From the NCBI GenBank assembly GCA_038231455.1, contig JBBRLI010000006.1:96001-160000 (forward strand): DNA of 64,000 nt, given 5' to 3'. Origin of the DNA: Vulcanimicrobiales bacterium (GTDB lineage: Bacteria; Vulcanimicrobiota; Vulcanimicrobiia; Vulcanimicrobiales; Vulcanimicrobiaceae). Of this stretch, positions 7,326 to 26,942 are shown piece after piece; within the stretch, counting starts at the first letter, position 1, and every line of letters begins with the position of its first letter. A model generated the notes under the pieces. It saw only the letters and a program-made list of their open reading frames with translations. It was not told where the DNA came from and did no database searches. A program made the translations under genes and the position numbers.

Positions 7326-7351
7326 CCGGACATTACGATGAATGTGTCCGG
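7326..7351. promoter_or_regulatory. Candidate TetR operator (inverted repeat)
   Basis: CCGGACA-N12-TGTCCGG between the divergent TetR and membrane-protein genes. Confidence 0.5.
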
Positions 7352-7438
7352 AAGCGGACAACCCATTCCTCACATTCTTGTTTCGCCGCAGAGACGCTGT
7401 TATCGTTTTCCCGAATCGCTAACGTCTGGAGACGAAGC

Positions 7439-8113: not shown

Positions 8114-8133
8114 GTCATCGACGTCGCTTTCGG

Positions 8134-8526: not shown

Positions 8527-9809
8527 TCTGGTCGATCTCCTGGAGTGAGGGGAGGTGTGGTAAAATCGCCGGCGGCGTGCTGGACGGCTGATACGGCAAG
8601 ATCGTAGCGCGCAAGACTACGCACGACCGCTTCGCGCGCCGATGCAGTCACGGCGAGCGCATCGAGCGTCTCCGTTTCGATTGCCTTGCCAGCTTGCCGG
8701 CGTAAAAAAGAAAGTCGAAGCTGCTCTTCTGCATCGGTCTGGCCCGCGGTTGCCGTTGATAAATTTCGTGTCGCCGCCTCGAGCTCGCGCCACGCATCGG
8801 CGACATCGCGCTTGGTGGCGCTTCGCACTTGGTCGCGTGCAGTGACCGCTTTGTCGAAGTCGGCTTGCGCTTTCGAGCGTGTCGATTGCCGCGCCGAGCC
8901 ATCGAGCACCGGCAACGCGATCGTGAGTTGGAGTTGACTACCGCTTGGGCCGAGGTTCGGAACGGACCGCCCGTTATACGTTTGCACCGTAAGCGTCGCG
9001 TTCGGTGTGTATGCGGCGTGGGCGGATGCAATCGAACTTTGAAGCGCGCGTATCCGCTGCTCCGCGACGAGGATTCCCGGCCGTCGTGCAAGCGCACGGT
9101 CGAGCACCGCCGCGCGCGTTTGGTCAAACACGACGCGGGCAAGCGGATCGACGGAAAAATCCGTTCGGTCGAGATCGAGCACGGCGGCCAGGTCGAATGA
9201 TGCTTGATCGCGCTCCGCGCGCGCATCTTCGAGTCCTTGCCGCGCTGTCGCCAAGGCTGCCCGGCTGCGAAGGGTGGCGAATTTTGCGGACTTCCCCGCT
9301 GCGACGCGTTGCTCGGTAAGGCGAAGTTGCGCTTCTTGATCGGTGAGTGAAGCCGTCCGGCTAAGAACGATCGCATCGGCAAGTTGAATGCGGCGATAGG
9401 CGGCAATCGTCGTGAATACCGCGTCATTCGTCGATGCGTCAACACTTGCTTCGGCGGCGCGTGCATTCTGTACGGCCGCACGCGCTGCAAGCGCTGTCGC
9501 CGGTGTAAAGAGCGGGACCGAGAGCGTTGCTGCGCCGTAAGCTTGTCGCGCGATCGGTAATCCAAGTTGCGGCTCGTTCCCCGCTAACAGATTCGCGCTG
9601 ATGCCGATTTGCGGACGCAGCGTTGCAGCCGCAGCGTTGGCGTCCGCTCGGGCCGATGCCGCATCGGCACGCGCCATGCGAATGTCGAAGCCGGCGGAGC
9701 GAACGCGCGTGAGGGCCTCTTCGAGCGTAAAAGTATGCGGTGTCTGCGCTGAGAACGCCGGCAACGCGCAAACGAGAACAAAGACGCACGTGAAGGCAAT
9801 CCTACGCAT
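8523..9809 (-). CDS. TolC family outer membrane efflux protein
   Basis: Signal peptide MRRIAF..., FTLEEAL, two helical repeats, A.YD...A C-terminal pattern; start at ATG 9809. Confidence 0.85.
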   Translation of the reverse strand: MRRIAFTCVFVLVCALPAFSAQTPHTFTLEEALTRVRSAGFDIRMARADAASARADANAAAATLRPQIGISANLLAGNEPQLGLPIARQAYGAATLSVPLFTPATALAARAAVQNARAAEASVDASTNDAVFTTIAAYRRIQLADAIVLSRTASLTDQEAQLRLTEQRVAAGKSAKFATLRSRAALATARQGLEDARAERDQASFDLAAVLDLDRTDFSVDPLARVVFDQTRAAVLDRALARRPGILVAEQRIRALQSSIASAHAAYTPNATLTVQTYNGRSVPNLGPSGSQLQLTIALPVLDGSARQSTRSKAQADFDKAVTARDQVRSATKRDVADAWRELEAATRNLSTATAGQTDAEEQLRLSFLRRQAGKAIETETLDALAVTASAREAVVRSLARYDLAVSAVQHAAGDFTTPPLTPGDRPE

Positions 9810-12800: not shown

Positions 12801-12972
12801 AGCCGGGCGTCATCGTGACGACGGCGACGATCGGGCTTGGCACGTACGGCATCATACGGGTCGGAAGCAAGAAGATGACGGCTGCAATTGCCGCGATGAC
12901 GAGCGCAACGTATATCGCGATGACGGCGAACGGATTCTTGAGCGACCAGGCGGGGACGTCAAACGATTTCAC
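9802..12972 (-). CDS. RND efflux permease (AcrB/CusA/CzcA superfamily)
   Basis: 1056 aa; AIGRLVDDSIVV, RLRPILMTT, PLATVIIGGL. Confidence 0.95.
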   Translation of the reverse strand: MKSFDVPAWSLKNPFAVIAIYVALVIAAIAAVIFLLPTRMMPYVPSPIVAVVTMTPGYSAEETETYFSKPIEERMTDLKGVRFVRSISQDGLSTVTLQFPYGADMQRALVDVQQLVKQAEGDLPYDRANLKPSYVVPVDPLNTPVLQLAVSGIGWDPVRLREFIANDVVRELKGVEGVQNVYPFGGLQRQLQVIADRAALGASGLSMVDLRDAIDKQNISRSGGTLTGKNRETIVRDDQRIRSAQDVLDLPVMTSGDRTIFVRDLAAVRDGAAEQRAAYRFNGKESVEVSIVENPDASSPQVIAAVNERLRTIEAENPGLSFTPAYDNARFVSDLNRNMLEELIVSVVLAGFVLLIFLEDVSATAIVMTSIPTCLGLAVLLFVPMHLSINSSTLIGLLLAIGRLVDDSIVVIHSVHRKLGEGRTSREAAIEGTREVILPIAAATGVMVLALVPLLLSGGITQIMFMGLVWPIVFALIASLIVSVTLTPLLAAYLFNGEGEHAPHWRSRIDDGVRRLLAPTRRGLVKLEGSYRSSLQWSLRNTTAVLAIAAILTYAAIQFAPLIGSEMMPLADTGQASAYFETTAGTSFAATSEKAKRFEQILLAQPDVQRVSGEIGEATAGGYATGTAMGTVNSASYLITFKPKEERKRSIWSIMDGVYAQTLRTIPGLRRVALKEMGSDVMASNDAPVELLVTGPDVAVVERLAAQVAGVAKSVPGMVQVSTSSSMLQPQRVITVDRARAAQLGLTPDEVTQQAYYATHGGLTTEYFNQQNLRHSTILLRYDASDRATSADLAAVQIVGKNGTSVALSTIAQIDRHDGPTLIEHDGLRPSVAVLGYYRKGARGEMALDMDTIMGSIAQVTFPKGYAIAMRGDMTEMTQSFDRLLGAMKVAIVFVFLLLVAQFRSVTHPLVMLLAIPLELLGVFGGLMLAHQNLSTVSILGIVVANGMAVSNAILLLDLIIHNRAKGLSRIEAILQAGPVRLRPILMTTIVSLVVLIPVAFFPKTGIDAYAPLATVIIGGLSISTVLTLFVVPVLYAGFDELGLRIRSRNERSAHA

Positions 12973-14864
12973 GTGCGACTCTCGGTAATGGTCTGACCTT
13001 CTTGGAGCGTAGCGGCGCCTTCGACGACGACGCGCGCTTTCCGATCGAGGTCGCCGCTCACCGTAGCGCTACTGCCGTCATCGGAACGGACGCGCACGGG
13101 AACGCGATGCGCCGTTCCGTTAACATCCGTCCAGACCGCCGCATCGGAACCGGAGCCGATGATCGCCGCGCTCGGGACGGCGGTCGTGCCCGAAAACGCT
13201 CGGCGGCGTGCATGAATTGTCACGCGGACGAATCCGCCCGGCACGAATCCGTGCGCGCCGTTTTCCACGATTGCCTCGACGAGTGCCGTATGCGATGTCG
13301 CATCGGCGATCGGGGAGATCGACGTCACCCGACCGCGAACGAGCGTATCGTCCGCACGGCGCGCTTCGATCGGCGTCCCGACAACGATGTCCGGAAGATC
13401 TTGCTGCGCGACGTTTGCCTGGACGCGGAGCCGGCGAACGACGGCGATTCGTGCGATCGTTGTTCCCGCTTGCACGAACACACCGGGATCGACCAGTCTT
13501 TTGACGACGATCGCATCGTCGGGACTGACGACCGATGTAAATCCGGCCAAGGTCCGTTCGGTCAACGCTTGCGCCGCAGCTCGATCTGCGGCCGCGTGTG
13601 CGGCACTCGCTTGCGCGCGCATCTGCTCGACACCGGCACCCGCATCGGCTAGTTTTCTCGAAGAGACGATCACTTGTTGTTCGAGTGAGGCAACTTTTTC
13701 TGTCGCCGTGCGATACGCAGCGTCGGCAGCGGCTCGTTGGGCGCGCTCGTCTTGATAGTCTTGCATCGATACGGCGCCTTGATCGAGCAGCGACTTTTCA
13801 CGAAGGAGTTCGTTCTCCCAGTAGGAGCGGGATTCGGCCTTTGCCACGCGCTCGGACCGGGCGGCTACAAGATCGTGCGTCATCGCCGCGCGATCTGCTT
13901 GCGCGATTACCACGCCGTTTGGTGCATGGTGATTTGCCTCAACGTCTGCGGCCCGCGCAACGGCGGCTTGACTGGCGGCGTCGGCTGCCGCTGCGATTGC
14001 GCGGCTTTGCAGATCGGGCGCATCGAGTCGCGCGATCACTTGCCCCGCGCGAACGTCGTCGCCGGCATACACGGAGAAGTCGCGGAGAATACCGGGTGCA
14101 CGCGTGACGATATCTTGTATCAAGTACGGTGCAATCGAACCGGTCACATGAATGTCAGCGGATGCATCGCTTGATTGCACGGGGGCAAGCGTCACGGGAG
14201 TCGCCGCATTCCCGCTGATCGTCGACATCGCGGCCATATCCATCGCCGGTGCGGCATAGCGCGCGGAGACGAGTGCGAGAACCCCGATGAGGACCGTCGC
14301 GCCGCCGAGGATGCCAAGGGTGAGCGGTCGACGATCGCGCCGCATGACCACAAGGATGATGCCAGCGAGAAGAACGACGGCGAGGGCGATCGCTGCAACG
14401 CGCCACGCATCGGGATTTCCGGGAGATGATGACATGCTGCCCATCGCAGCCGTCGCGCCGGCGCCTTCTCCGGCAACGGCGAATCGATACGTCGCCGTGC
14501 CGGTTACGCCGCCGGAAAAGTGGACGGTAATGGCCCACGTCGTCGCCATCGCCACGGACATCCCGATTGTCCACTGCCCGGGACCCGTTTTATGAAGATC
14601 GCCGCTTGGACCATTCATCGACATCGTGGGCATCGCCGAGGAGAACGACGCGGTCGTTCGTGCGATTGCGTCGGCCGGCGCGCCGATGAGTTGGAGCGTC
14701 CCGGTGATGTGTCCCGTAGTCGGCGGATCGGGAAACAATTCGAGCGTCGCCTGCGCAGCGCCGACCGACACAACCATTGTCGATGCCATCGCAGAACTCG
14801 GCACGAGCGCGAGTACCAAAGCGAAGATCGCAACGACGAATTGGCTGGAGACAAGTCGATTCAA
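12969..14864 (-). CDS. RND periplasmic adaptor with N-terminal YtkA-like Met-rich domain and extra TM helices
   Basis: TTG 14864 with AAGGA RBS; AMPTMSM domain, two TMs, then lipoyl-like VYAGDDVRAGQVIARL, coiled coil and beta-barrel. Confidence 0.85.
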   Translation of the reverse strand: MNRLVSSQFVVAIFALVLALVPSSAMASTMVVSVGAAQATLELFPDPPTTGHITGTLQLIGAPADAIARTTASFSSAMPTMSMNGPSGDLHKTGPGQWTIGMSVAMATTWAITVHFSGGVTGTATYRFAVAGEGAGATAAMGSMSSSPGNPDAWRVAAIALAVVLLAGIILVVMRRDRRPLTLGILGGATVLIGVLALVSARYAAPAMDMAAMSTISGNAATPVTLAPVQSSDASADIHVTGSIAPYLIQDIVTRAPGILRDFSVYAGDDVRAGQVIARLDAPDLQSRAIAAAADAASQAAVARAADVEANHHAPNGVVIAQADRAAMTHDLVAARSERVAKAESRSYWENELLREKSLLDQGAVSMQDYQDERAQRAAADAAYRTATEKVASLEQQVIVSSRKLADAGAGVEQMRAQASAAHAAADRAAAQALTERTLAGFTSVVSPDDAIVVKRLVDPGVFVQAGTTIARIAVVRRLRVQANVAQQDLPDIVVGTPIEARRADDTLVRGRVTSISPIADATSHTALVEAIVENGAHGFVPGGFVRVTIHARRRAFSGTTAVPSAAIIGSGSDAAVWTDVNGTAHRVPVRVRSDDGSSATVSGDLDRKARVVVEGAATLQEGQTITESRT

Positions 14865-14899
14865 AGTGCTACGTTCCTTAGCAGATGCGTTCAAAAAAA

Positions 14900-15877
14900 T
14901 TACATGACCATGTGCGATGAGGCGGCATGATCGCACGGCGTCGGGTTGATGAGCGACGCTGCTGCCGGTGCGATGCCGAAGAGCATGACGGCGACGATGA
15001 TCGTCGAGACATACACGCGATTCCATGCGGACAATGCGACCGGCCGATCGCCTTGCACGAGCAAAGCGCGCAGACGTCGGCGAAAGCTGGAGTTTCCATG
15101 CAGGGCCGCCATGTTTGCTACGCGGCTGCGAGTGCAGGTAAAGGTCAACAATGCCCCGGCGAGATCTTCGGGCGATGCGTGACGCAGAGCGTGTGCGTCA
15201 GCAGCGAATTCGCGTGCGTCGCGGTAGATCGAAACGAACGCCGACGATGGCATCGGAAAAAGATCGACAAGAAAGGCGATCGCCGCTGCGACGGCTTGAT
15301 CGCCACGCCGTGCGTGACCGCGTTCGTGAAGAAGTGCCGCCGCAAGCTCCGCATCGTTCATATCGCGTAGCGTGCGCGACGAGACGATGACCGCCGGGCG
15401 GTGGACACGAGCGAGCGCGCAGAATGGCTCGTCGAGCGGTAACTCGCGCACGGAGACGGCAATCTGCAAAGCGATCTTGGCGAGTCGATCCGACGGTGCA
15501 ACGGTGATGCGCAGAAGTGCGCTCGATTCCGCCGCGCGCCGACGCGCGAGAACGGTTGCTCGGAGGAGGGAGAGGACGAGAACGGTCGCGATGATGGCGT
15601 AAAGCACGCGTCCGGCCTCAGTTTGGAAACATGCCGCATGCACGCCACCGATCAAAGCAGCGACCGCGAGCGCGAGGACGAGCGTTCCGGGAAGAATCGC
15701 CGCAATCGATGCGAGCGCCGCTTGCCAAGTCGCGTCGCCGGACATCTTACGTAGCGAACCAAGCGCGAGCCGCAATGCCGCCCACGCGGCAAGCGGAACC
15801 ACGAGGAGCGCGCAGGCGGACGAGAGCAGCACGCCGCTGCGAAAGCAGTCGGCAAAAAATAAGCCGAAGTCAGGCAC
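14900..15877 (-). CDS. M56/M48 family membrane zinc peptidase (BlaR1-like, no penicillin-binding domain)
   Basis: LLHERGHARRGD (HExxH), REFAADAHA; directly follows BlaI-like gene. Confidence 0.85.
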   Translation of the reverse strand: MPDFGLFFADCFRSGVLLSSACALLVVPLAAWAALRLALGSLRKMSGDATWQAALASIAAILPGTLVLALAVAALIGGVHAACFQTEAGRVLYAIIATVLVLSLLRATVLARRRAAESSALLRITVAPSDRLAKIALQIAVSVRELPLDEPFCALARVHRPAVIVSSRTLRDMNDAELAAALLHERGHARRGDQAVAAAIAFLVDLFPMPSSAFVSIYRDAREFAADAHALRHASPEDLAGALLTFTCTRSRVANMAALHGNSSFRRRLRALLVQGDRPVALSAWNRVYVSTIIVAVMLFGIAPAAASLINPTPCDHAASSHMVM

Positions 15878-16304
15878 GGCGTGCCTCGGCGCGTTTGGCG
15901 GCTAAGAGCTTGGCAAATTCTTCGTAGCTCTCATCATCGTTTGCGAGTTCGCCCGCAATATGCGCGAGGAGCGGATTGCGCTGGCTTCTATAGAGAGGGC
16001 GAAGCACGTCGCCGATCACCGATGCTTGGAACGCTTCACGCGAAATCGCCGGGATAAACAGGTTCGCTCGCCCGGCCGACTTTTTGTTCAGGTGGAGCTT
16101 ATTTACGAGATTCTGCATGATCGTCTTGACCGTCGAATAGGCGAGCGTCTTACCCTCACCGGACTTCTCGATTTCGGTCATCACATCGCTGACGGCCATC
16201 CAATCGCCATATGCCCACATGATCTCGATCACGCGAGATTCGAGTGGGCCAAGGGCGCTGGCCGTATCGTCGGCGCCACCGATGCGGATCGTACGCAAAC
16301 TCAT
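15870..16304 (-). CDS. BlaI/MecI/CopY family repressor
   Basis: LGPLESRVIEIMW, LAYSTVKTIMQNL..K. Confidence 0.9.
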   Translation of the reverse strand: MSLRTIRIGGADDTASALGPLESRVIEIMWAYGDWMAVSDVMTEIEKSGEGKTLAYSTVKTIMQNLVNKLHLNKKSAGRANLFIPAISREAFQASVIGDVLRPLYRSQRNPLLAHIAGELANDDESYEEFAKLLAAKRAEARRA

Positions 16305-16378
16305 CTGCTAAGGACGCTAGCATATGCCTCGCAGCCGGTCAATCGGATATCATGCAGCGTACGTTCCGCAGTCCTGTA

Positions 16379-16421
16379 TTGACTTAATTGGATACAAGGC
16401 ATAGAATCGAAATATGTCGAT
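16379..16421 (+). promoter_or_regulatory. sigma70-type promoter with overlapping ArsR-type operator
   Basis: TTGACT(16379)-17 nt-TAGAAT(16402); palindrome ATCGA-N6-TCGAT at 16406-16421 spans the ATG. Confidence 0.7.
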
Positions 16422-16746
16422 ACAACGTTGTTGCCCGCCGGCCGTCGTCGATGACTCGGATCGCTCGGAGCAGTCCAGCCTTTTTAAGGCGCTCGGAGAT
16501 CCCCATCGCCTGGCCATGCTCGCGACGCTAGCGCGGACGGATGACGAGGTCTGCGTTTGCGACTTCACCAGCGCCTTGCCCTTAGAGCAACCGACGATAT
16601 CACACCACCTCCGATTGCTTCGCGACGCACGCTTGGTTACGTCCGAGCGACGCGGTACATGGGTGTACTATCGCCTGGCAAGCGATGCGTCTGAACGCAT
16701 TGACGCCGCACTACGCTCGGTACTTCCGCAGAAAGTTCTTGCATGA
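16414..16746 (+). CDS. arsR: ArsR/SmtB arsenic-responsive repressor
   Basis: FKALGDPHRL, EVCVCD metal box, QPTISHHL, N-terminal CC. Confidence 0.9.
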   Translation: MSIQRCCPPAVVDDSDRSEQSSLFKALGDPHRLAMLATLARTDDEVCVCDFTSALPLEQPTISHHLRLLRDARLVTSERRGTWVYYRLASDASERIDAALRSVLPQKVLA

Positions 16747-17144
16747 AGATGCATCTGAACCTCGCGACGCGCGACCTCGAAGGCAGCATCGCATTTTACT
16801 CAACGCTCTTTGCCGCCAAGCCGTCCAAGCAACTCCCCGATTACGCGCTCTTTATCACCGAGCACCCGGGACTCGAATTGGCGCTCGATCTCGACCTCGG
16901 CGCTCGAATCGGTGTCAGTGAGCATTTCGGTATCGTTGTCGATTCGCCGCACGAAGTCGATGCTCAGATCGAGCGATTGCGGAATGCCGGCTACGCAGTC
17001 GATATCGAACGTGGCGAGACGTGCTGCTATGCAAATCAAACGAAAGTTTGGGCGAGTGACCCGGAAGGGCGACGTTGGGAGACCTACTTCGTTCACGAAG
17101 AAACCGAGGCGCGCGACGACGATCAGACATCATGCTGCACCTAG
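16743..17144 (+). CDS. arsI: ArsI/CadI family VOC protein (putative C-As lyase)
   Basis: MHLNL, HFGI, TCCYA vicinal Cys pair, W..DPEG.RWE, C-terminal CC. Confidence 0.8.
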   Translation: MKMHLNLATRDLEGSIAFYSTLFAAKPSKQLPDYALFITEHPGLELALDLDLGARIGVSEHFGIVVDSPHEVDAQIERLRNAGYAVDIERGETCCYANQTKVWASDPEGRRWETYFVHEETEARDDDQTSCCT

Positions 17145-17163
17145 GTCTCGATTTGGAGAAGGT

Positions 17164-17880
17164 GTGAATTATCGCGCAGTCGCCGCCGAATTTTTTGGCT
17201 CGGTCTTCTTGCTCTTGGCCGTCGTCGGGTCGGGAATTATGGCGGAACGGCTTAGCGGCGGAAACGTCGGCGTCGCGCTCCTTGCGAACACCATCGCGAC
17301 CGGTGGAGCCCTCATCGCGCTTATTTTAGCTTTCGGACCCGTATCCGGCGCGCACTTCAATCCAGCCGTGACCCTGGCCGATGCGTGGCAACGCGGACTC
17401 GCTTGGTCGATGGTCATGCCGTATTTTATCGCTCAGATCGCTGGCGCAATACTTGGGACGGCGCTTGCGAACACGCTGTTCGGCCTGCCGGTTTTTTTTG
17501 CTTCGCACCACTCGCGCTCGGGCGCGGTCCTGCTCGTTAGTGAGTTCGTCGCGACCTTTGGGCTGCTCGCCGTCATCTGGGGCTGCGTACGCTCGCGCCC
17601 ATCGGTAACTCCGTTTGCCGTCGCCGCATATATCGTTGGGGCATACTGGTTCACGCCGTCCACCTCGTTCGCAAATCCCGCTGTGACGATCGCTCGTTCA
17701 CTCACCGATACGTTCGCGGGGATTCGGCCGCAAGATGCCCCGGGTTTTATCATCGTTCAGTTCGCCGGTGCAATCGCGGCGACCGCGCTCTTCGCCTGGC
17801 TAGCCCCGATCTCTTCGGCCACGGCAAAAGCCGTTGTCGTCCCACATTCGAAGGAGAGCCGTGAACTTGTCAGCCGCTAA
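17164..17880 (+). CDS. MIP/aquaporin family channel (AqpS-like, putative arsenite channel)
   Basis: SGAHFNPAVT and STSFANPAVT NPA motifs; inside ars operon; GTG 17164 with GGAG RBS. Confidence 0.88.
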   Translation: MNYRAVAAEFFGSVFLLLAVVGSGIMAERLSGGNVGVALLANTIATGGALIALILAFGPVSGAHFNPAVTLADAWQRGLAWSMVMPYFIAQIAGAILGTALANTLFGLPVFFASHHSRSGAVLLVSEFVATFGLLAVIWGCVRSRPSVTPFAVAAYIVGAYWFTPSTSFANPAVTIARSLTDTFAGIRPQDAPGFIIVQFAGAIAATALFAWLAPISSATAKAVVVPHSKESRELVSR

Positions 17881-18280
17881 CCAGACGCCATTCGTGTTGT
17901 TCGTTTGTCGGCACAACACCGGCCGTTCGCAGATGGCGGAAGCGTATCTGCGGCACTTCGCGGGCGATAAAATCGAAGTCGCCTCAGCGGGAACGATCGC
18001 CGCCGCGGTCCCCGATCCGCGCGTTGTCGCGATCATGGCGGAGGATGGTATCGATATCAGTGCTGCGCGGCCAAAACTGCTCGACGCGGAGAAAGCCAAG
18101 ATCGCCGATCGCATTATAACGATGGGTTGCGATGTTGAAGGCGTGCCTCGGATCGATGCAGATTGGGGTCTTGCCGATCCCAAAGGTCAGCCGCCTGAGG
18201 CCGTTCGCGAGATTCGGAACACGATCAAAGAAAAAGCCCGCGAGTTAGCGGCCGCCCTACTTGGAACGAACAAAGCTTAG
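17861..18280 (+). CDS. arsC: LMW-PTP-fold arsenate reductase
   Basis: VCRHNTGRSQMAE P-loop, ITMGC, W.L.DP; AAGGAG RBS before GTG 17861. Confidence 0.8.
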   Translation: MNLSAANQTPFVLFVCRHNTGRSQMAEAYLRHFAGDKIEVASAGTIAAAVPDPRVVAIMAEDGIDISAARPKLLDAEKAKIADRIITMGCDVEGVPRIDADWGLADPKGQPPEAVREIRNTIKEKARELAAALLGTNKA

Positions 18281-18330
18281 ACTCGGTGGGGTCTGCCCCG
18301 ACGCCGACTTGCAAGGACCGTGCATCACCT

Positions 18331-21300
18331 TTAAACGGTGATCGCCATTCCGCGATAAATACGCGAACGATAGCGACTGTCGTCGGCGGCGGGTAGTGGG
18401 CCGGATTCAAGGACGAGCGCGCGCGCGAAACGGTCGAGTTCTTCTTGTTGCTCGCTCGTATTACGCGGTTCTTCGCTTTGCACACGGCGCGTGACGTTGA
18501 TCTGATTGACCGGCACTTCATGCACGAGACGTTCGTTCTCGACGGCAATCGTTGCGGTAAGGGCGTGCAGTGTGGTCTTGATGAAATTCGCCAGCGCAAA
18601 TTCCACCGGGTTGCCGCCAAATGGAACGTCGGGGGAGACGAAGACCAGTCGCACGTCTTCGAGCAGTGACACCGTTCGTGCGACGCGAAAGTGATTGGTG
18701 ATATTCTCCTCGATCATCGCTTCGAATCCGGGTCCATCGAGAGCGTGATCGCCTTCGAAAAGCGCGTTCGGTAAGAGACCGAGCGGCATGGAGACGACAG
18801 CCGCCGGGTTCGGATATTCGCTCAGTGCGCGATCGAGCCCGGTCTCGAGGTCCGCGCCGATGACGATGTCGACGATGCGTTCCGCGATCGTCGATCCGAC
18901 GCGTTGACGGACGTGTTTTACTGCTTGTTGCGTGCACGTGATTAGCACCACGCGATCGACGCCGCACTCTTCGACATACGCACGGGCCGCGCGCACCATG
19001 TGTTCGATCGGATGCTCGCCGACGATCCAGACGTTTCGCCCGCGCAGTTGCGCCACGCGCTCGTCCTTCGAGCGACCGAAGAGTTCTCGCTCGGTAATCG
19101 AGCGTTCTTGGCGCAGACCGCCCGAGGGTTGAAACGTTTCGCCCGAGACGGCGCGATCGGCAAGGAAGTACACCGTCGCAAGCGCGACTTCGAGTTCGCT
19201 CGGCATATGCTGCAAATGCAGCATTTTTAGCACCCCCGACCGCACTTTTTCCGCTTCGCGTTCGACCTCGCGCGGTGCAAAGAATGGTTCGGCGGGACGT
19301 TGTGCGATGCCGCATTTGACGTCATCTGAGAGACGATGGCTGCGCTGCAAACGCTCGCAAAGCTTTCGTGAGATATCTTCGTCCATCAGCGCCGTAGCGA
19401 ATGATGAACCTTCGCTTGCGGCCGCCCCCTTCACGATTGCATCGCAGAGATTGCGCAGCGTCGCGGGCGTTGAAGGATCAGCGATGATCTCCGCAATGTC
19501 GTTCCGCATTGCCGCCTGCAGGAACAGATGCGTTTCGCCGCCCGTGCGCACGTGCGCGATCGCCGCGGCGTAGATTGCATTCAGTCTCTTTGCGGCTAAA
19601 ATCAGCTTGCCGCGGCGTTCGAAGAGACCCGGTCCGCCGCCCGTGCCGGCGAGACGGTCGCCCGCAACCGGTCCTGGGGCGATTGCGTTGATTTGAATTT
19701 CGGGACCGACGAATTGCGCGAGCGTCTCGACGATTGCGCGCTGCCCGGCTTTGGATACGGCATAGTCGCTTCGATTGGGATAGGCGACGGCAACGTATTT
19801 CTCTCCGCCGAAGTACGAGCTAACGTTAAGAATGTAGCCGCTGCCGCGCTTTTTCATCTCTGGAACGACGCGCGCCATCAGCGCAAAGTTCGAGATCAGG
19901 TTGGCTTTGAGCGTTCGGCGCCAGCTCTCGAGCGGCATATCGACGACCATTTGTTCGGCCCCCGCTATCCCGGCATTGTTAATGAGATAGTCGATCGAAC
20001 CGAACCGGGAAAGACCACGATCGATCGCAAGGGCGAGCGTCGCGTCGTCTGCGACATCGACGCCGTCGAGTGTTTCGATTCGCGCCGCGGCGTCGTCGTA
20101 GCCGATGGCCGTGAGTTCGCTAACGATATTCTTGCGCATCGTTGCGAGTTGATCCGCACGACGCGCAGCGATGATCACCCGCGCGCCCGCGATTGCCAGC
20201 AGTCGAGCGATCTGGCCGCCAATACCGGCGGAACCTCCCGTAATGAAGGCGACTTTGCCGCGATGGAGGCCGATGAGGCTCTCGCTTGCGCCAAACGTAG
20301 CGCGGGTCGCGCCCGTGCCTTCGCCAAGCGAATCGGGTAAGTACAGATTCACGGGCTTCGTGCGCCGGTTGGTGTAAAGAAGTTTCGCTGTCCACGCCGC
20401 TGCGAACCGCAGCCCTTCGTCTTCGGTATTCGTCCAGCGCACGATTTGATTTGACCAGTCGGCAAAGGGCCGTTTACCAGCCGACGCGTCGAGTTCCGAT
20501 TCGTCACGCCAAACGCGCACGAGCTGTTCTACCGCGGCGCGCCAGATATCGCCATAGACGTTGCCGCGACCGTCGTCTCCGTTCCCGAGAAAAACGACGC
20601 GCGGGTTAGCGCCGATGCGGGCGGTACTCCAATACCGTCCGAGTTCGCGCGCAATCACGATCGCGCCCACGATCTCGCCGTCCAAGAACGCGTCGACGTC
20701 CTCATCGCTGGCGTCGGCCAGCGGCTTGGTGAAATGCTTGGGACCGAACGCGGGCAAAATGACGGCGCCGTGCACGGCACCCGATGTGCGCCGCAACATC
20801 GTTGCGACCGCGTCGGGATCGCGCCGGTCGAGTGCGAGCGTGCGAATGTTGCGATCGAGTTCCAAGTCTCCGAGCTTCGAAGATGCGCTCGTGAGCGCCG
20901 CGTCGTTTGGGACGCTAAGCAAGACCGTAGCTCCGCATTCCGCGTGCGCTCGTGCAACGGCGATGCCGGCTTCGACATCTTCGCCTGAGACGACAAGCAC
21001 GGTACGTCCCGACGCATCGACGATGCGTAGACCGGGACGTGCGGTAAACGTGCTGCGACTTTCCTGTCGCACAAGCATGCCGTGCGTGATCTCGAAGTTG
21101 TGTCCGCTGATCGCGCCCGAATCGTCACTGCCGAGAAAAACCGTCGTGGATGCCACATCGCCAATCGTCGGAAACGGTGTGGCAGGAATGGCGTCCGTGC
21201 CGCCGTTCCGTGAGAGCGTCATCATATCGGTGATCTCGTTTGCCGTGGTGCCGGAAGGCGCGCTGCGGAGGGCGTCCATCGAAGCAAATACGCTATGGAT

Positions 21301-21966
21301 GCGCTCGCTCTCGATCGGGCCGGGAAAGACGGTATTCACGCGAATGCCGCGCTCGCCAAGTTCGTATGCCAGGCGCCGCGACCACGCATTGAGTGCAGCC
21401 TTTGGTACGACGTACCCCGCGCGTCCGAAATAGGCCGTGCGCGAAAAAATTGTGGAAATATTAATGATCGAGGCACCCGGCGCCAAATGTGGAGCTGCGG
21501 CGCGTACGACATTCCATGCCACGCCGAAAAGGTTTCGAGCGGCATCGCCGACCGTCTCGGTGTCGCTTGCACCACCCGCTCGCAGACGCTCGAGATCCGC
21601 GTTCGATATCGGCACGTTTTCGAGTTGTTGGCGTGGTCCGGCGGACCCGGCATTATTCACCAGGACGTCAATTCGGCCGAAGTGCTCGAGGATGCGTGCA
21701 ATACCCGCACGCGCTTGCACGGGATCGCCTGCGTCAAATGGGCTCACGAAGATGCGATCGGCATCAACGTCGGTCTCGGCGATCAGCTTGATTCGGGCGT
21801 TGGCAAGTTTGTCGCCGTCACGCCCGACCATGGCAATCCGTGCTCCCTCAGCAAGGTAACGGCGCGATATTTCGCCGCCAATATTGCCCGCGGCTCCCGT
21901 GATGACCGCGACCTTGCCCGCAAGTCGCAAAACGGGGAGAGACCGGACCGAGTCGACTGAAGCCAT
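18331..21966 (-). CDS. mcr: Bifunctional malonyl-CoA reductase (3-hydroxypropionate-forming), Chloroflexus type
   Basis: About 1210 aa tandem-SDR protein collinear with Chloroflexus Mcr as I recall it: RLAGKVAVITGAAGNIG, NNAGSAG, YVVPK, ESLIGLH.GKVAFITGGSAGIGGQI, SSYFGGEK..YPNRSDYAVSKAGQR, FALANFIKTTLHA, ends RIYRGMAITV; alternative start 21984. Confidence 0.93.
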   Translation of the reverse strand: MASVDSVRSLPVLRLAGKVAVITGAAGNIGGEISRRYLAEGARIAMVGRDGDKLANARIKLIAETDVDADRIFVSPFDAGDPVQARAGIARILEHFGRIDVLVNNAGSAGPRQQLENVPISNADLERLRAGGASDTETVGDAARNLFGVAWNVVRAAAPHLAPGASIINISTIFSRTAYFGRAGYVVPKAALNAWSRRLAYELGERGIRVNTVFPGPIESERIHSVFASMDALRSAPSGTTANEITDMMTLSRNGGTDAIPATPFPTIGDVASTTVFLGSDDSGAISGHNFEITHGMLVRQESRSTFTARPGLRIVDASGRTVLVVSGEDVEAGIAVARAHAECGATVLLSVPNDAALTSASSKLGDLELDRNIRTLALDRRDPDAVATMLRRTSGAVHGAVILPAFGPKHFTKPLADASDEDVDAFLDGEIVGAIVIARELGRYWSTARIGANPRVVFLGNGDDGRGNVYGDIWRAAVEQLVRVWRDESELDASAGKRPFADWSNQIVRWTNTEDEGLRFAAAWTAKLLYTNRRTKPVNLYLPDSLGEGTGATRATFGASESLIGLHRGKVAFITGGSAGIGGQIARLLAIAGARVIIAARRADQLATMRKNIVSELTAIGYDDAAARIETLDGVDVADDATLALAIDRGLSRFGSIDYLINNAGIAGAEQMVVDMPLESWRRTLKANLISNFALMARVVPEMKKRGSGYILNVSSYFGGEKYVAVAYPNRSDYAVSKAGQRAIVETLAQFVGPEIQINAIAPGPVAGDRLAGTGGGPGLFERRGKLILAAKRLNAIYAAAIAHVRTGGETHLFLQAAMRNDIAEIIADPSTPATLRNLCDAIVKGAAASEGSSFATALMDEDISRKLCERLQRSHRLSDDVKCGIAQRPAEPFFAPREVEREAEKVRSGVLKMLHLQHMPSELEVALATVYFLADRAVSGETFQPSGGLRQERSITERELFGRSKDERVAQLRGRNVWIVGEHPIEHMVRAARAYVEECGVDRVVLITCTQQAVKHVRQRVGSTIAERIVDIVIGADLETGLDRALSEYPNPAAVVSMPLGLLPNALFEGDHALDGPGFEAMIEENITNHFRVARTVSLLEDVRLVFVSPDVPFGGNPVEFALANFIKTTLHALTATIAVENERLVHEVPVNQINVTRRVQSEEPRNTSEQQEELDRFARALVLESGPLPAADDSRYRSRIYRGMAITV

Positions 21967-22020
21967 CCTGAACGTGATCCCCACAAGAGAAGAAGCCGTT
22001 GGTCGCCAGAAGCCCCCTTA

Positions 22021-22060
22021 TAATACCCAACCATTGATGAATAGCAACCCATCCAATGGT
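22021..22060 (-). promoter_or_regulatory. Putative mcr promoter with overlapping inverted repeat
   Basis: Minus strand TTGCTA-16 nt-TATTAT; ACCATTG-N17-CAATGGT at 22030-22060. Confidence 0.5.
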
Positions 22061-22179
22061 AGAATCTTTGGCGGGGTCTGCCTGAACCGGAAAAAATCTT
22101 CCGGGGGAGGACGCCTGTCGGTAGCCGGGCGAGTCGGGCTGCCGGATACCGAGAACCGAATAGACATCAACGGCGCCCG

Positions 22180-24702
22180 CTACGGGAGATGTAGACGGAT
22201 CGCGTGCCAGACGAGGCCCGGCTCGTACCGGTGGGTCACGACGCCCGTCTCGTGATCCATGGCGTAGAGTCGTAGCCAGCGATTATCGACCAGGTTGCGG
22301 ACCGAATCGTGCTTCGCGATAACGGCATCCATCGCGGCCGTTGGAGCAGCGATGATCACATTGAGACGTTGCGGCTCGTGCATGAACCGCTCCCCATCGT
22401 GCACCGATTGCCAGGGAAGCCCAACCCGAAGATCGCCAGCGTTCCCTTCGAGCACCCCAAGACACCCGGTGACGTTGTGTAAGACCTTATTGCCGGCGCC
22501 GAAGAGTCGATTGTTCACGACCGAACCGTAATATTGAAGATTGATCCAGCTTGCAACGACCATCGGCGCCACCATGATCAGTTCGAGGACGCCGCGGGTC
22601 GTGTCGAGATCGAAGCGGTAATCGTGCAAAAAGGCGCGGCCTTCGAAATCGATGCCGCGCGTGAACTCACGCGGCGCGGCGATGAATGCCGCGTTGTTTG
22701 CCAGTGCCCATTCGGGCCGCACTTGCGCCCAATCGCGGCTACGCACCAGCACGCGACGGTCCGTGTTCTCATCGACCGGGATACCCATGAGCGGCGCGCG
22801 TTCGCGCCGCGTGATCGCGCTCGAGGTTCGAAGCCACCCGTGAACGTCGGTAATTAGCGGGCGATGCGAGCTTGGCAACCGATCCTCATCGTAGATCGTA
22901 ATTTCATCGGTCGTTGTGTCGTGCAGGCAGCCTAGGAACCATGTATCATCTGGAATATCGATTCCGCGGCTACGCAGGCCGACGCGAACACCCGGATCGT
23001 TGCAGATGTCCGCTGCCACGCGCGCGTTGGCCTCGCCGGTATGCCCGCCACATGCTCCGCAATCGAGTCCCGATGCGTGCGGGTTGTTGACGGTCGTGCT
23101 ACCGTGACCGACCATCATGACCAGCGGCGCGAAGTTTCCTTTCATTGACATCGCGCCGAGCACGGCTTCCGCCATGTCGATCTTTTTTTCATCGGTAAAT
23201 CCGGTCGGGCTTCCGCCATCGTTACGCGCCTCGATTTCGGGACCGAGCTTTTGAATCGTCGTCGCGTCAAGACCGTCCGTATTGGGGTCGGTGGTCGGTC
23301 GCGTGAGTGCAAGGCTATCGGTCAGAATTTTACCCGCGAACAAGATGCCGCCGGTTTTGACGAAAATGAACGATGAAACAGCCGAGAGTTTAAACGACTT
23401 CCAGGCCTTATACGCGCGTCGTCGCAAGAGCCGCAGACCGAGGATCTCGGCGTTATCATCGCGCGAGACGCTTTGAACGACTTGTCGTACCGTAAATGCG
23501 GGCGTGAGCAGGACGGGACACTGCGCACCTCCGCGCAGGTGTCCGATCGGCACGTACTCGATCGGGTAGCCAAAGAAACCCGCAAATCCAATCGTTTGCA
23601 CACCCGGCGCTACGCTCTCTAAGGCCCGCCGGTACACTTCGGAACGAACGTCGATGCAGAAAGCCGCTTGCAACTGCGGGCGCGCAGCAACTGCAACGAC
23701 GGCGGGGGATCCGAGCTTCGCGAGAAGCCGCCGCTCGTACGCCGCCTCGTATGCTTCTTGCGCAAGAATATCGATGCTCAGTTCGGGATCATCCCCGAGT
23801 CGCTCGTCCAGCGGAATTGAGGCAGCGTCGTGCATCGCGCGCTCCCAAGCAGAACGGAATTCCGTATCGGAGCGTTGCATGAAAAGCGCGTATCCCCAAA
23901 CCACGCGGATCGCGAGCAACTGAACCAGTGCATCGTTGGTGCCGCCGTAGAGTTCGCTCTCCCAGACGAGATACCGCGCGTACGATGCCCAACCCGCGAT
24001 GTCGAGGAGCGTTTGATGCAAGTACTCGACGAGTGCACGCGGTGGGACGCCGAGCTTCTCGACGACTTCCGCGATAGCTGCGACGGGATCAGCCGGCATG
24101 CTTGCCACGATCCGGCGGAAGCCGGCGATGCCCATGACTTCGGGATTGCGATCGTACTGCATTGCTGCGCGCCACGCGGCAAACGGTCGTAGTTCGCGCT
24201 CGGGTAATTGCCAGACCGTCTGTCCTTCATCAAAATACGCCGCGCTGAATCGTGAAATCTCATCGATCATGAACGCGGTGCCCGAGACCTGGCGATTGCC
24301 CTCGGCGAGCGCGTCGATGATCTCCGCGACACTAGCGACGTGCGCGGGGTGCTTTCTGCGTGCACCTTCCTCCAGCGCGAGCGACTCTTTGAATTCCGCT
24401 ACCGTCTTGGGTGCCTGCCATTCGTGCGGCGCAGCGAAGAGCGCCGTCGCGATATCGGCGTCTTCGATTCGTCCGCTCGCGAGCGCTTCGCGGTAGAACG
24501 AGCGCGGCATCAGCATATCGGCACGCGCCACCCGGTACATCGTGGCGCACGTCGCGTGAAAGCTTTGGTGCGTGAATCCAAGAAATGGATTGACGGCGAC
24601 AAAGTGTTTGAGCGGCCAGAGCGGCGCAATGCGATTGCAGGCTTGTGCGATCACCGATTCGAGATCGATTGTCTTGAGCGTTTCGGGAACGTTGAGGGTC
24701 AT
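22180..24702 (-). CDS. dabA: DabA (DUF2309) beta-carbonic-anhydrase-like subunit of DAB inorganic carbon pump
   Basis: APLWPLKHFVAVNPF, FCIDVRSE, GFAGFFG, GHGS, LDCGACGG (Cys/Asp/His/Cys Zn-site residues present), RPEWAL. Confidence 0.95.
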   Translation of the reverse strand: MTLNVPETLKTIDLESVIAQACNRIAPLWPLKHFVAVNPFLGFTHQSFHATCATMYRVARADMLMPRSFYREALASGRIEDADIATALFAAPHEWQAPKTVAEFKESLALEEGARRKHPAHVASVAEIIDALAEGNRQVSGTAFMIDEISRFSAAYFDEGQTVWQLPERELRPFAAWRAAMQYDRNPEVMGIAGFRRIVASMPADPVAAIAEVVEKLGVPPRALVEYLHQTLLDIAGWASYARYLVWESELYGGTNDALVQLLAIRVVWGYALFMQRSDTEFRSAWERAMHDAASIPLDERLGDDPELSIDILAQEAYEAAYERRLLAKLGSPAVVAVAARPQLQAAFCIDVRSEVYRRALESVAPGVQTIGFAGFFGYPIEYVPIGHLRGGAQCPVLLTPAFTVRQVVQSVSRDDNAEILGLRLLRRRAYKAWKSFKLSAVSSFIFVKTGGILFAGKILTDSLALTRPTTDPNTDGLDATTIQKLGPEIEARNDGGSPTGFTDEKKIDMAEAVLGAMSMKGNFAPLVMMVGHGSTTVNNPHASGLDCGACGGHTGEANARVAADICNDPGVRVGLRSRGIDIPDDTWFLGCLHDTTTDEITIYDEDRLPSSHRPLITDVHGWLRTSSAITRRERAPLMGIPVDENTDRRVLVRSRDWAQVRPEWALANNAAFIAAPREFTRGIDFEGRAFLHDYRFDLDTTRGVLELIMVAPMVVASWINLQYYGSVVNNRLFGAGNKVLHNVTGCLGVLEGNAGDLRVGLPWQSVHDGERFMHEPQRLNVIIAAPTAAMDAVIAKHDSVRNLVDNRWLRLYAMDHETGVVTHRYEPGLVWHAIRLHLP

Positions 24703-24705
24703 TTG

Positions 24706-26316
24706 CTACAACGGCCTCGCGGTGGATGAGAGCGGTTTTGGCGCGGGCGCCGGCCAGAGGCGCACGACGATACGGTTCGCTAGCGTGTTGACATACAGGC
24801 CGTTTGCAACGTGGGCATACATCGCGCGCCATCGGGGCGAAGTAAAGCGGCCCGGCACCCAGTTTTGCAAAAACACGATAACGGCAAAGGCCACGATGAC
24901 CGCTCCGACCAGGGCGATGTCGAGCGGGCCGCGGGCAGGCGCCGCCGGCACCGCGCCGGCAAGCAGAAATTCCATCGTGTACTGGAGGCCAAAATACGCC
25001 GCTGCGATCGCGATGGCCGTCAGCACGGTCCGGCCGACAACGTAGAAGTTGGGCCGGTTTTCAATGCTGCGCGCGAGCAGGTGGACGATGCTGAGCAGCA
25101 GCGTTGCGCCGAGCGCGAACACGCCCGGCTTTTCGGCGATGTCCGCGCCGAAGAGGCGCCCGACGATCGCGACCGCAGCAATGACCATGATGATGACGAA
25201 AATCAAACGCCCCGCGTTCGGTTTGCCTTCGGGCTTTGGCGTGTACGAAGCGCGGGAGATGTCGATCACGCTACCCGAGGATAAGAACGCGTGTGCTTTG
25301 TAGCATGAGTGCGCGACGATGTGCAGGAGCGCTGCGGGAAACGCTCCGATTCCGCACTCGAAGAGCATAAATCCCATCTGCGCCACCGTCGAGTACGCGA
25401 GTGTCACCTTGATGGAACTCTGGGTTAGCATCACCACCGAGCCAAAGAGCGCGGTGAAGCCGCCCACGATGACCAGCGTGTCGAGCGCAGGCAGCGAGAG
25501 CACGATTAAACCGGCAAAGCGCAAGACAAGAAAACCACCGGCATTGATGATGCCGGCGTGCAGCAGCGAAGAAACGGGTGTCGGCGTTTCCATCACTTCG
25601 ATCAGCCAACCGTGTGTCGGGAATTGGGCCGAGGTGAGCAGTGCCGCTAGCACCAGCAACATCGCGGCAACCGAGATGCCGCCGGGCACCGTTGCACCGT
25701 GCAACGCGGCGACGCCGGCGAATACCACACCGTAATCGAGGCTCCCGAAATTGAAGTAGATGAGCACGGCGGCTGCGACGATGCACGTCTCAGCAAGCCG
25801 GCTGACAATAAACTTCTTGCGTCCGGCGAGCACGGCTGCGGGACGGCCGGGATAGAACAAGAGTAATTGCTGCAGGCAGAGCGCCGTCGCGATCCAGGCG
25901 AAGGCGAGCAGCGCTACGTTTCCGGCAATAATTGCGATCAGAATCGAGGCGAGCGTGAGGCAGAGGAATCGCGTGAAACGTACATGCGCCGGATCGCCGT
26001 CGAGGTAGTTCTTGCTGTACAGCGTGACGATGACGCCGACGAAAGCAACGAGGCAATACATCGTGGCGCTAAGCGAGTCGAGGTAGAGTGCCAAGCCGAC
26101 CCCATTCGCACCGAGTGTCTCGGTGTGGAGCGGCCCCTTCGCAACAACCGCGACCGCCGCCGAAACGGCGGTAAGTAGCGCGACGCCGGCGGCCGCAATC
26201 GCGAGCCGATTATACCGTACGGCGGCGCGCAATTTCCGTTCTCCGGGTAGCAGTCCGACCAAGAGCAAACCAATTGGCCCCGCAGCGGCCAGCCACAAGC
26301 TATTCACCCAAGTCAA
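24706..26316 (-). CDS. dabB: DabB NuoL/MrpA-like membrane subunit of DAB pump
   Basis: SAQFPTHGWLIEVMETPTPVSSLLHAGIINAGG, LAYSTVAQMGFM, HSCYKAHAFL; 3 bp from dabA. Confidence 0.93.
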   Translation of the reverse strand: MTWVNSLWLAAAGPIGLLLVGLLPGERKLRAAVRYNRLAIAAAGVALLTAVSAAVAVVAKGPLHTETLGANGVGLALYLDSLSATMYCLVAFVGVIVTLYSKNYLDGDPAHVRFTRFLCLTLASILIAIIAGNVALLAFAWIATALCLQQLLLFYPGRPAAVLAGRKKFIVSRLAETCIVAAAVLIYFNFGSLDYGVVFAGVAALHGATVPGGISVAAMLLVLAALLTSAQFPTHGWLIEVMETPTPVSSLLHAGIINAGGFLVLRFAGLIVLSLPALDTLVIVGGFTALFGSVVMLTQSSIKVTLAYSTVAQMGFMLFECGIGAFPAALLHIVAHSCYKAHAFLSSGSVIDISRASYTPKPEGKPNAGRLIFVIIMVIAAVAIVGRLFGADIAEKPGVFALGATLLLSIVHLLARSIENRPNFYVVGRTVLTAIAIAAAYFGLQYTMEFLLAGAVPAAPARGPLDIALVGAVIVAFAVIVFLQNWVPGRFTSPRWRAMYAHVANGLYVNTLANRIVVRLWPAPAPKPLSSTARPL

Positions 26317-26435
26317 CGTACGCCACGCCTTTCGTTTAAAACACTCGTGATGGAGTTAATCAAAGCGAGGCCGCCTAAAAGGGAGGCGACGATCACTCGA
26401 ACGAGCCCTGCAGGGACTGGACACACGAATCGCAT

Positions 26436-26467
26436 AACATGAACTCTATTGCATGTTTTGATACCAT
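26436..26467. promoter_or_regulatory. Candidate operator and extended -10 between dabB and its divergent regulator
   Basis: AACATG-N10-CATGTT (26436-26457); TGaTACCAT ending 6 nt before GTG 26474. Confidence 0.5.
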
Positions 26468-26473
26468 AGTCGC

Positions 26474-26782
26474 GTGAGTGTCGTCAAGAAGCGCGCCGTC
26501 GGATCCGAGGCGCGAACCGGCTGGACGTTTTTGACCAATCACGCGCATGTCTTGATCGCGCTTACGCGCGACCCGTTAGCGCGTGTTCGAGACCTCGCGC
26601 TCTCGGTTGGCATCACCGAGCGAGCGATTTTGCAAATCCTTTCCGACCTCGAAGCGGGCGGCGTGATCGAGCGCCTGCGCGAGGGCCGCCGGAACACCTA
26701 CCGGATCAATAAAGAGGTCCGTTTGCGACACCCGCTCGAGTCCAACCACCGAATCGATGAGCTTCTGACGCTCGCGCGATAA
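26474..26782 (+). CDS. Winged-helix (MarR/ArsR-like) transcriptional regulator
   Basis: WTFLTNHAHVL, VGITERA..IL.DL, R.GRRN.Y, LRHPLE. Confidence 0.88.
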   Translation: MSVVKKRAVGSEARTGWTFLTNHAHVLIALTRDPLARVRDLALSVGITERAILQILSDLEAGGVIERLREGRRNTYRINKEVRLRHPLESNHRIDELLTLAR

Positions 26783-26942
26783 GCCGCATCGCGAATGGCG
26801 AGGCAAATCCAGAACCGGTTCGCTCACTGATGTAAATCGCGGCTTCGCCATATTCTGATTCAGGCGCAGCACGTCGGTGTCGGCAGCTTCCTGAGTTCAT
26901 TTGTCGCGTCGCTCGATGGCGGCTCCGCGGTGGACACAACAC

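Follow-up and report, generated by a model that had tools for sequence, protein, structure and literature searches.

A lone bifunctional malonyl-CoA reductase in phototrophic Vulcanimicrobiaceae

Bifunctional malonyl-CoA reductase (Mcr), encoded by mcr (K14468), is used as a marker of the 3-hydroxypropionate (3-HP) bicycle and has been described as unshared with other pathways (10.64898/2026.09.02.748891). The diagnostic trio of the bicycle comprises Mcr, Pcs and MMC lyase (PMC5459899). Outside Chloroflexota, Mcr has been published for Proteobacteria, Actinobacteriota and Gemmatimonadota (PMC9802188; 10.64898/2026.09.02.748891). Here we describe an mcr gene on the minus strand of a 64,000-nt stretch of Vulcanimicrobiales bacterium DNA (assembly GCA_038231455.1, contig JBBRLI010000006.1, positions 96,001 to 160,000), hereafter called the window, whose numbering is used unless a contig or locus is named. 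The genome is labeled G000; G283 is its only congener, and G161 and G403 are the other genomes of the family in which Mcr was found.

The Chloroflexus Mcr (PDB 8HJW, which we take to be that of Chloroflexus aurantiacus) has the same length class and four-SDR layout as the window protein and lies on a different branch (approximately unbiased (AU) test against the proxy P0241, p=2e-6). Mcr of Roseiflexus castenholzii (K14468, PDB 8HI4; PMC10470521) shares the length class, the four-SDR layout and all 20 functional residues mapped. The window host differs from both organisms in that Pcs, Mcl, Mct and Mch are missing and RuBisCO is present instead. The nearest named relatives are the Mcr proteins of aerobic anoxygenic phototrophs (Gemmatimonadota; Porphyrobacter dokdonensis, PDB 6K8S-6K8W), which are likewise associated with phototrophs; there, mcr usually lies beside pcs (47/66 loci), whereas the Vulcanimicrobiaceae copies have no pcs adjacent or elsewhere in the genome. 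In Cereibacter sphaeroides, separate enzymes convert 3-HP to 3-HP-CoA and acrylyl-CoA, followed by AcuI, PCC and mutase (PMC12632250), and G000 has AcuI-family and methylmalonyl-CoA genes. The two differ in that C. sphaeroides takes up external 3-HP and assimilates acetate via the ethylmalonyl-CoA pathway (PMC12632250), whereas the Mcr of G000 could make 3-HP from acetyl-CoA and Ccr is absent.

No report of Mcr in Eremiobacterota or under names in Vulcanimicrobi- was found in the literature searched, which did not extend to supplementary tables or subscription journals, and the string 'Eremiobacter' does not occur in PMC9802188. The enzyme as such is an ordinary representative of its family; as far as this search reaches, what is new is the phylum and the setting (Mcr without Pcs, in one host also with RuBisCO). 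By sequence criteria, mcr encodes an intact enzyme of a known family; it belongs to a new clade and stands in an unusual Pcs-free setting tied to phototrophy, and its function is treated below as a hypothesis.

The mcr gene and its product

A single uninterrupted minus-strand frame spans 18331-21984 and opens with GTG, and the ATG at 21966 gives a protein of 1211 aa. As P0002, a homolog of 90% identity, likewise starts with MASVDS, the coordinates 18331..21966 of the initial annotation are right. That annotation had also reported both SDR motifs, both Gly-rich loops and the C-terminus as intact, and all were found in place, the C-terminal YRGMAITV ending at 18334. The features of the gene are as follows:

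18331..21966, minus strand: mcr, bifunctional malonyl-CoA reductase, 1211 aa (open frame, full-length match to 8HI4 and 8HJW, start backed by P0002)
21900-21877, minus strand: TGAAGNIG cofactor loop, aa 23-30, located in the translation
21414-21400, minus strand: YVVPK motif, aa 185-189, located in the translation
20241-20218, minus strand: TGGSAGIG cofactor loop, aa 576-583, located in the translation
19764-19750, minus strand: YAVSK motif, aa 735-739, located in the translation
21400..21453, minus strand: N-terminal active site T172, Y179, R182, Y185 and K189, aligned with Roseiflexus T165, Y172, R175, Y178 and K182 (PMC10470521)
19750..19818, minus strand: C-terminal active site S717, Y729, R732, Y735 and K739, aligned with Roseiflexus S731, Y743, R746, Y749 and K753
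18529..19656, minus strand: malonyl-CoA/CoA-binding residues R771, L781, R785, K793, K907 and R1146, aligned with Roseiflexus R785, L795, R799, K807, K919 and R1164
minus strand: NADP(H)-binding residues R49, S579, R602 and D637, aligned with Roseiflexus R41, S593, R616 and D651

In the domain layout, SDR1-SDR2 correspond to the alcohol dehydrogenase half and SDR3-ED-SDR4 to the CoA-acylating aldehyde dehydrogenase half. The protein aligned end to end with 8HI4 at 1184 bits and with 8HJW at 1134 bits (open reading frame (ORF) residues 18-1217), and generic SDRs scored at most 89 bits; the match to the solved full-length chains is far beyond chance. The two halves of P. dokdonensis Mcr scored 572 and 745 bits, in sum above either Chloroflexales chain. 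We mapped by hand 20 catalytic, NADP(H)-binding or CoA-binding residues of Roseiflexus Mcr, as given in PMC10470521, onto the alignments, and 20/20 are identical in the 1211-aa protein. They include the Thr-Tyr-Lys triad and YxxRxxY motif of SDR1, the Ser-Tyr-Lys residues and Tyr-Arg pair of SDR3, and the malonyl-CoA-binding arginines of ED and SDR4 (R771, R785 and R1146).

The dN/dS ratio was ~0.19-0.26 against three relatives in a simple Nei-Gojobori count with dS near saturation. The gene is intact and under purifying selection, and its product, by length, alignment and motifs, can be assigned to the bifunctional malonyl-CoA reductase family (K14468), in agreement with the initial annotation. 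The conserved residues argue strongly that it would be a working NADPH-dependent malonyl-CoA reductase.

Lineage, distribution and movement of mcr

The initial annotation had suggested a host that is possibly Eremiobacterota and not Chloroflexus. The best named matches of the window GroEL are Ca. Velthaea (94%), Ca. Lustribacter (93-94%) and a Vulcanimicrobiaceae entry (91%); among the 120 GroEL matches listed, 5 bear organism names, and 5/5 are from Vulcanimicrobiaceae. This count takes Ca. Velthaea and Ca. Lustribacter as genera of the family. Velthaea has been treated as Eremiobacterota (PMC9758169). GroEL thus places the host in Vulcanimicrobiaceae (Eremiobacterota), as the sequence comparison indicates.

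Mcr was found in 2/401 genomes sampled across the phylum and in 3/348 genomes of the family: G000, G161 (66% identity) and G403 (59% identity; genome 68% complete). It was not found in G283. A type II reaction centre (pufLM) is encoded in 30 of the 348 family genomes, and all three Mcr carriers are among these 30 (Fisher p=6e-4 over 348 genomes, which are kin and not independent, with phototrophs clustered). A pattern scan of metagenomes returned two loci, of which L094 is genuine and L095 is unrelated. L094:3076-6831 holds a fourth Mcr copy (P0006) at the edge of a photosynthesis cluster, two genes from bchP-bchG and accompanied by an ORF that we label haloperoxidase-like with no family match. 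L094 comes from a close relative of the G000 host. Its flanks show 78-82% DNA identity to the G000 photosynthesis cluster, where mcr is missing from the corresponding position, and the BchP proteins of L094 and G000 are 93% identical, whereas their Mcr proteins are only 62% identical. The four copies (G000, G161, G403 and L094) stand at four unrelated sites. We infer that phototrophs of the family have exchanged mcr on its own, and we read it as an accessory trait that one gene confers on phototrophic Vulcanimicrobiaceae, outside any 3-HP bicycle. One of the carriers, the phototroph G161 (L068, L073, L079; 94% complete), has Mcr and DAB but no match to RuBisCO, isocitrate lyase (ICL), Ccr, Pcs or AcuI.

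Mcr trees were built from 79, 48 and 26 selected sequences, with rows picked from the 66 loci, 120 homologs and 150 representatives. One clade (Shimodaira-Hasegawa (SH)-like support 1.0; 100/100 for the seven kept in IQ-TREE) united the three family copies with six further homologs. It was nested in a 100/100 branch that also contains Mcr from Gemmatimonadota and Proteobacteria, its nearest outside rows being P0015 and P0007. The sole Chloroflexus-type proxy in the trees, P0241 (1732 bits to 8HJW), fell outside this branch, and the AU test rejected its grouping with the clade (p=2e-6). The label 'Chloroflexus-type' in the initial annotation therefore fits the architecture and not the lineage. 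All nine clade proteins are full length and keep the catalytic motifs across 59-90% identity, with one Thr-to-Ser change in P0011. Identity is 59-67% between subgroups of the clade and at most 63% to the outside sequences compared; the nearest named relatives reach 53-59%, with Gemmatimonas groenlandica at 57%. The clade is old, and it offers divergent candidate enzymes for 3-HP biocatalyst screening. A distant group of about ten Mcr-like proteins of 1100-1280 aa (P0244, P0247-P0261) aligns over most of Mcr at 32-42% identity and has different C-termini.

The gene lies in a region that differs between G000 and its congener:

1..26941, window part of contig C6 92178-122941, no strand: variable region holding mcr, 30.8 kb, delimited by comparison with G283

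The corresponding site of G283, immediately upstream of mraZ, is occupied by 2.6 kb of other genes instead of 30.8 kb. Synteny resumes to the left of contig position 92177 and, on the mraZ side, to the right of 122942 (window 26942). The GC content of the region is 0.605 versus 0.617 on both flanks, and neither a tRNA gene nor a long direct repeat was found at its ends. Parts of it occur elsewhere in G283, namely the regulator-dabBA unit at another site and the efflux block at 72% DNA identity. A single congener does not polarize gain versus loss of the region. As mcr is patchy (3/348) and the 31-kb region is missing at the syntenic site of the congener, lateral movement of mcr, which the initial annotation had considered plausible, is likely. 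A recent import from another phylum was rejected on the basis of the monophyly of the family copies and of codon usage, which is ordinary for the host (distance rank 63 of 144 long ORFs; GC3 0.68 versus a median of 0.72).

Missing bicycle enzymes and the possible role of Mcr

In G000, Pcs queries matched only separate ligases and hydratases over single domains (29-47%), and no trifunctional Pcs was found. A Pcs-level match was obtained in 0/30 family phototrophs, a search that had no positive-control genome and whose query finds Pcs in the outside loci. The Mcl-like query, so labeled for its position within a cluster of 3-HP genes and not by a family match, had no match in G000 at E<1 and none in the three carriers at E<=1e-5. 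The best match of the Mct-like query (TIGR04253, 533 bits) in G000 had an E of 0.16, and that of the Mch-like query, 2e-5 over 132 aa, was unconvincing. Ccr was below cut-off in 6/6 genomes. Outside the family, pcs flanks mcr in 47/66 loci from other phyla (47/57 with usable upstream DNA); the 19 loci without adjacent pcs are 9 with <200 bases upstream, 7 from Chlorobiales and 3 from Burkholderiales with other 3-HP genes adjoining. In G000, where the neighbors are dabA and arsC, and in G161, G403 and L094, where they are unrelated genes, pcs is not adjacent to mcr. G000 does encode ACC, PCC-like subunits, methylmalonyl-CoA epimerase and mutase, the last of which occurs in 3/3 non-carriers tested as well and thus is not diagnostic. 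Of the diagnostic trio listed in PMC5459899, G000 has one. Since Pcs, Mcl, Mct and Mch are missing, G000 is predicted to have no 3-HP bicycle. The statements of the initial annotation that no other 3-HP gene lies in the window and that 3-HP autotrophy is not shown hold. The Vulcanimicrobiaceae mcr clade would be a false positive for the bicycle if K14468 were scored alone.

G000 (completeness 93.7%, contamination 0.16%) carries the phototrophy genes pufL, pufM, bchP, bchG and bchB, the Calvin-cycle genes for RuBisCO large subunit (form I-level), CbbR, PRK and GlpX, and two DabA genes. In cultured Vulcanimicrobium alpinum, type IE RuBisCO is accompanied by no further pathway of autotrophy (PMC9758169), a pattern with which the G000 set of RuBisCO with CbbR, PRK and phototrophy genes agrees. 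Two or three pufLM copies were seen in the family genomes G045, G126, G130 and G139.

Among the G000 genes for acetyl-CoA and C3 metabolism, accA, accC and accD, methylmalonyl-CoA epimerase and mutase are above cut-off, as is the AcuI-family gene at C1:160470 (TIGR02823, 349 bits, cut-off 297); PCC-like alpha and beta subunits were identified by similarity and are below the curated cut-offs for that name. Three genes are acetate-CoA-ligase-like (C3:187588, C1:306620 and C11:79955), two of them above a cut-off, and several others encode hydratases/crotonases; these are candidates for a 3-HP-CoA synthetase and dehydratase. The three ligases checked score below cut-off for MatB (malonyl-CoA synthetase). 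A 2-oxoacid:ferredoxin oxidoreductase with no substrate assigned is also encoded. ICL is found in 118/191 family genomes at least 90% complete (a count that includes G245 and G230, which are flagged as unpublished and are probably also among the 348) and in G403 together with Mcr, and was not found in G000 or G161. At the position of the G283 aceA locus (L096:8125-9372), G000 has a frameshifted serine-hydrolase-like gene (C29:36411-37528) between conserved flanks on one contig, and the loss of ICL is therefore real. Malate synthase is kept elsewhere in G000. A malonate decarboxylase cluster (C18:29701-34600; L124) would form acetate from malonate and so make assimilation of acetyl-CoA more necessary. 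Since both G000 and G161 encode PanD, a role of Mcr in beta-alanine supply (a PanD bypass) was rejected.

We consider that the lone Mcr is probably used for uptake of acetate and bicarbonate or for disposal of surplus reductant, rather than for life on CO2. It offers a testable case of a phototroph that would assimilate acetate without ICL, Ccr or Pcs, or dispose of reductant. The best reading, to which we give a probability of roughly 0.4, is light-linked assimilation of acetate and bicarbonate through split enzymes, with the direction of the pathway, the synthetase and the hydratase assumed. ACC would carboxylate acetyl-CoA to malonyl-CoA, which the C-terminal half of Mcr would reduce to malonate semialdehyde and the N-terminal half to 3-HP, using NADPH. 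An acyl-CoA synthetase, an enoyl-CoA hydratase and the AcuI-family reductase would then convert 3-HP to propionyl-CoA, and PCC, epimerase and mutase would convert this to succinyl-CoA. The net reaction would be acetyl-CoA + 2 HCO3- + 3 NADPH to succinyl-CoA, as in the first 3-HP cycle. Such a route would replace the lost glyoxylate shunt and spend light-made ATP and surplus reductant, and the DAB pump encoded beside mcr would supply the bicarbonate. In its favor, all 20 residues are conserved, the carriers are all phototrophs, ICL has been lost in place, neither Ccr nor Mcl was found, and ICL is missing from G161 too, which has Mcr, DAB and pufLM. Conversion of 3-HP to succinyl-CoA by separate enzymes via AcuI is established in C. 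sphaeroides (PMC12632250).

Several observations weigh against this assimilatory route. AcuI was found in 4/21 genomes (G000, G283, G045 and G126) and in neither other carrier, and the route is therefore not shown for the clade; even in G000, AcuI scores 317 against the stricter equivalog cut-off of 440. G403 carries Mcr together with ICL. ICL is found in 13 of 20 well-assembled phototrophs, and of the other 7, 5 carry no Mcr; counted over 18 well-assembled phototrophs, five have neither ICL nor Mcr (Fisher p=0.11), so that ICL loss does not require Mcr. No candidate gene for a 3-HP-CoA synthetase or dehydratase was found near mcr, and none was specifically identified. PCC is assigned by similarity, below curated cut-offs; MMSDH could short-circuit the route, and the 2-oxoacid:ferredoxin oxidoreductase and the Calvin cycle are alternatives to it. 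A tentative generalization is that phototrophic Eremiobacterota run a natural Pcs-free acetyl-CoA carboxylation in which ACC, a laterally exchanged lone Mcr and a separate synthetase, hydratase and acrylyl-CoA reductase lead to succinyl-CoA. This pathway would take the place of the glyoxylate shunt and, in the light, fix two bicarbonates for each acetate; in G000, a DAB pump would have been recruited beside mcr as the source of bicarbonate, alongside the Calvin cycle.

Mcr might instead act as an overflow valve for redox and carbon, a possible though less favored role. In the light, it would burn 2 NADPH per acetyl-CoA and bicarbonate, and 3-HP would be excreted, or activated and stored in polyhydroxyalkanoate, with no downstream assimilation. 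Such a valve explains why the gene travels alone and is retained by phototrophs only, and it does not need AcuI, which is missing in G161 and G403. A form I-level RuBisCO match is missing in 2/3 carriers versus 5/27 non-carriers (p=0.13), as expected if Mcr replaces the Calvin cycle, an electron sink (PMC8307300), in that function; however, G403 is only 68% complete, and G000 already has RuBisCO and PRK. Class I PhaC occurs in 5/5 genomes tested, including G000 and G161, but also in non-carriers. No exporter gene is conserved beside mcr, and excretion of a C3 acid would be costly for an oligotroph. Split assimilation and overflow can coexist.

Two further explanations appear unlikely. In the first, the enzyme would scavenge external 3-HP, oxidizing it with NADP+ to malonate semialdehyde and then to malonyl-CoA or, by an MmsA-type dehydrogenase, to acetyl-CoA. 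MMSDH is above cut-off in G000 and G161, malonate decarboxylase in G000 indicates that C3 acids are handled, and an oxidative 3-HP route via malonate semialdehyde exists in C. sphaeroides; that route, however, uses a GMC-type dehydrogenase and not Mcr (PMC12632250). MMSDH occurs in non-carriers too, scavenging would not need the complete C-terminal half or the CoA-binding residues, every one of which is kept, and the restriction to phototrophs would go unexplained. In the second, which we hold equally improbable, mcr would be a passenger, the remnant of a pcs-mcr unit drifting among genomes with no steady role. The adjacency of pcs in 47/66 loci of other phyla and the presence of mcr in 1% of family genomes at four unrelated sites are compatible with drift, but the conservation of length and catalytic motifs in nine clade proteins over 59-90% identity, with the one Thr-to-Ser change in P0011, and a dN/dS of about 0.2 speak against it; moreover, no pcs was found in any of the 30 phototrophs, so the clade apparently diverged without Pcs. 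Finally, a complete 3-HP bicycle for autotrophy is largely refuted and highly improbable. In its favor, the genome encodes Mcr, ACC, PCC-like subunits, epimerase and mutase, and a few genes may be unassembled at 93.7% completeness. Against it, Pcs, Mct, Mcl and Mch were not found in G000, Pcs was matched in 0/30 family phototrophs, and G000 has form I-level RuBisCO together with CbbR and PRK.

The DAB pump and other neighbors of mcr

The dabB-dabA genes, overlooked in the initial annotation, lie immediately upstream of mcr on the same strand:

22180..24702, minus strand: dabA, zinc/carbonic-anhydrase-like subunit of the DAB pump (PF10070, 889 bits; C349, D351, H533 and C548 present)
24706..26316, minus strand: dabB, membrane subunit of the DAB pump (PF00361 and PF00662)
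26474..26782, plus strand: small winged-helix regulator, divergent from dabB, which also adjoins dabB in G283, G161 and the second DAB locus of G000
22020..22047, minus strand: possible sigma-70-like mcr promoter TTGCTA-16-TATTAT in the 213-nt dabA-mcr gap, weak and suggestive only by position

The PF00361 and PF10070 genes are adjacent and the Cys-Asp-His-Cys zinc site is kept, which identifies the pair as a DAB pump. DabA/DabB of Halothiobacillus neapolitanus, with the active-site residues C351/D353/H524/C539 (10.1101/476713), form a like dabB-dabA pair, and all four zinc-site residues are shared; carboxysome genes adjoin there, whereas mcr adjoins in G000. The promoter scan was at chance level, with 3 sites in 9.3 kb versus 2.8 expected, as were terminators (12 versus 10.5). 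There were no notable repeats in 17800-27100 and no Rfam match in 15000-28000.

DabA was found in 8/30 family phototrophs, and its adjacency to mcr is not conserved: in G161, DAB is on another contig, no DabA was found in G403, and G283 has DAB without mcr. Outside the family, DAB is convergent to pcs-mcr in 2/66 loci, both from closely related Caulobacterales metagenome-assembled genomes (L043:13702-17665 and L049:13705-17604), which gives an independent DAB-Mcr neighborhood. A dedicated DAB-mcr operon is unsupported by conservation across carriers, and it is doubtful that the adjacency is functional. No publication joining DabA with malonyl-CoA reductase was found in the literature searched. 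In G376 and G238, a DabA lies ~7-8 kb or less from RuBisCO.

The regulator-dabB-dabA block appears mobile (window 22180-26782, L083:12689-17250, L085:8259-12714 and L087:10297-15061), standing at differing sites in G000, G283 and G161. The winged-helix gene is constant beside dabB-dabA and may encode a DAB-specific regulator. The second dabBA pair of G000 (C16:62299-71260; L087, L127) lies beside genes for tartronate-semialdehyde reductase and glyoxylate carboligase, and its DabA has 1/3 of the active-site motifs searched. A link between bicarbonate pumping and glyoxylate salvage is possible at this locus.

On the other side of mcr, profile matches identified two resistance blocks:

16414..18280, plus strand: arsenic-resistance-type genes (ArsR, glyoxalase-family, aquaporin and ArsC-like), convergent with mcr
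8134..16304, minus strand: heavy-metal RND efflux block (BlaI/CopY-like, M56, CusB, CusA, OEP and YtkA)

The initial annotation had drawn attention to the metal-resistance block beside mcr. The adjacency is real, but its relevance did not hold, the genes being co-passengers: no arsenic/metal-resistance genes were observed around mcr in the three other contexts (G161, G403 and L094), where its neighbors differ, and a functional tie of mcr to metal resistance was rejected. Farther to the right, the dcw cluster contains an F420:gamma-glutamyl ligase-like gene (33340-34032), which lies between murF and mraY.

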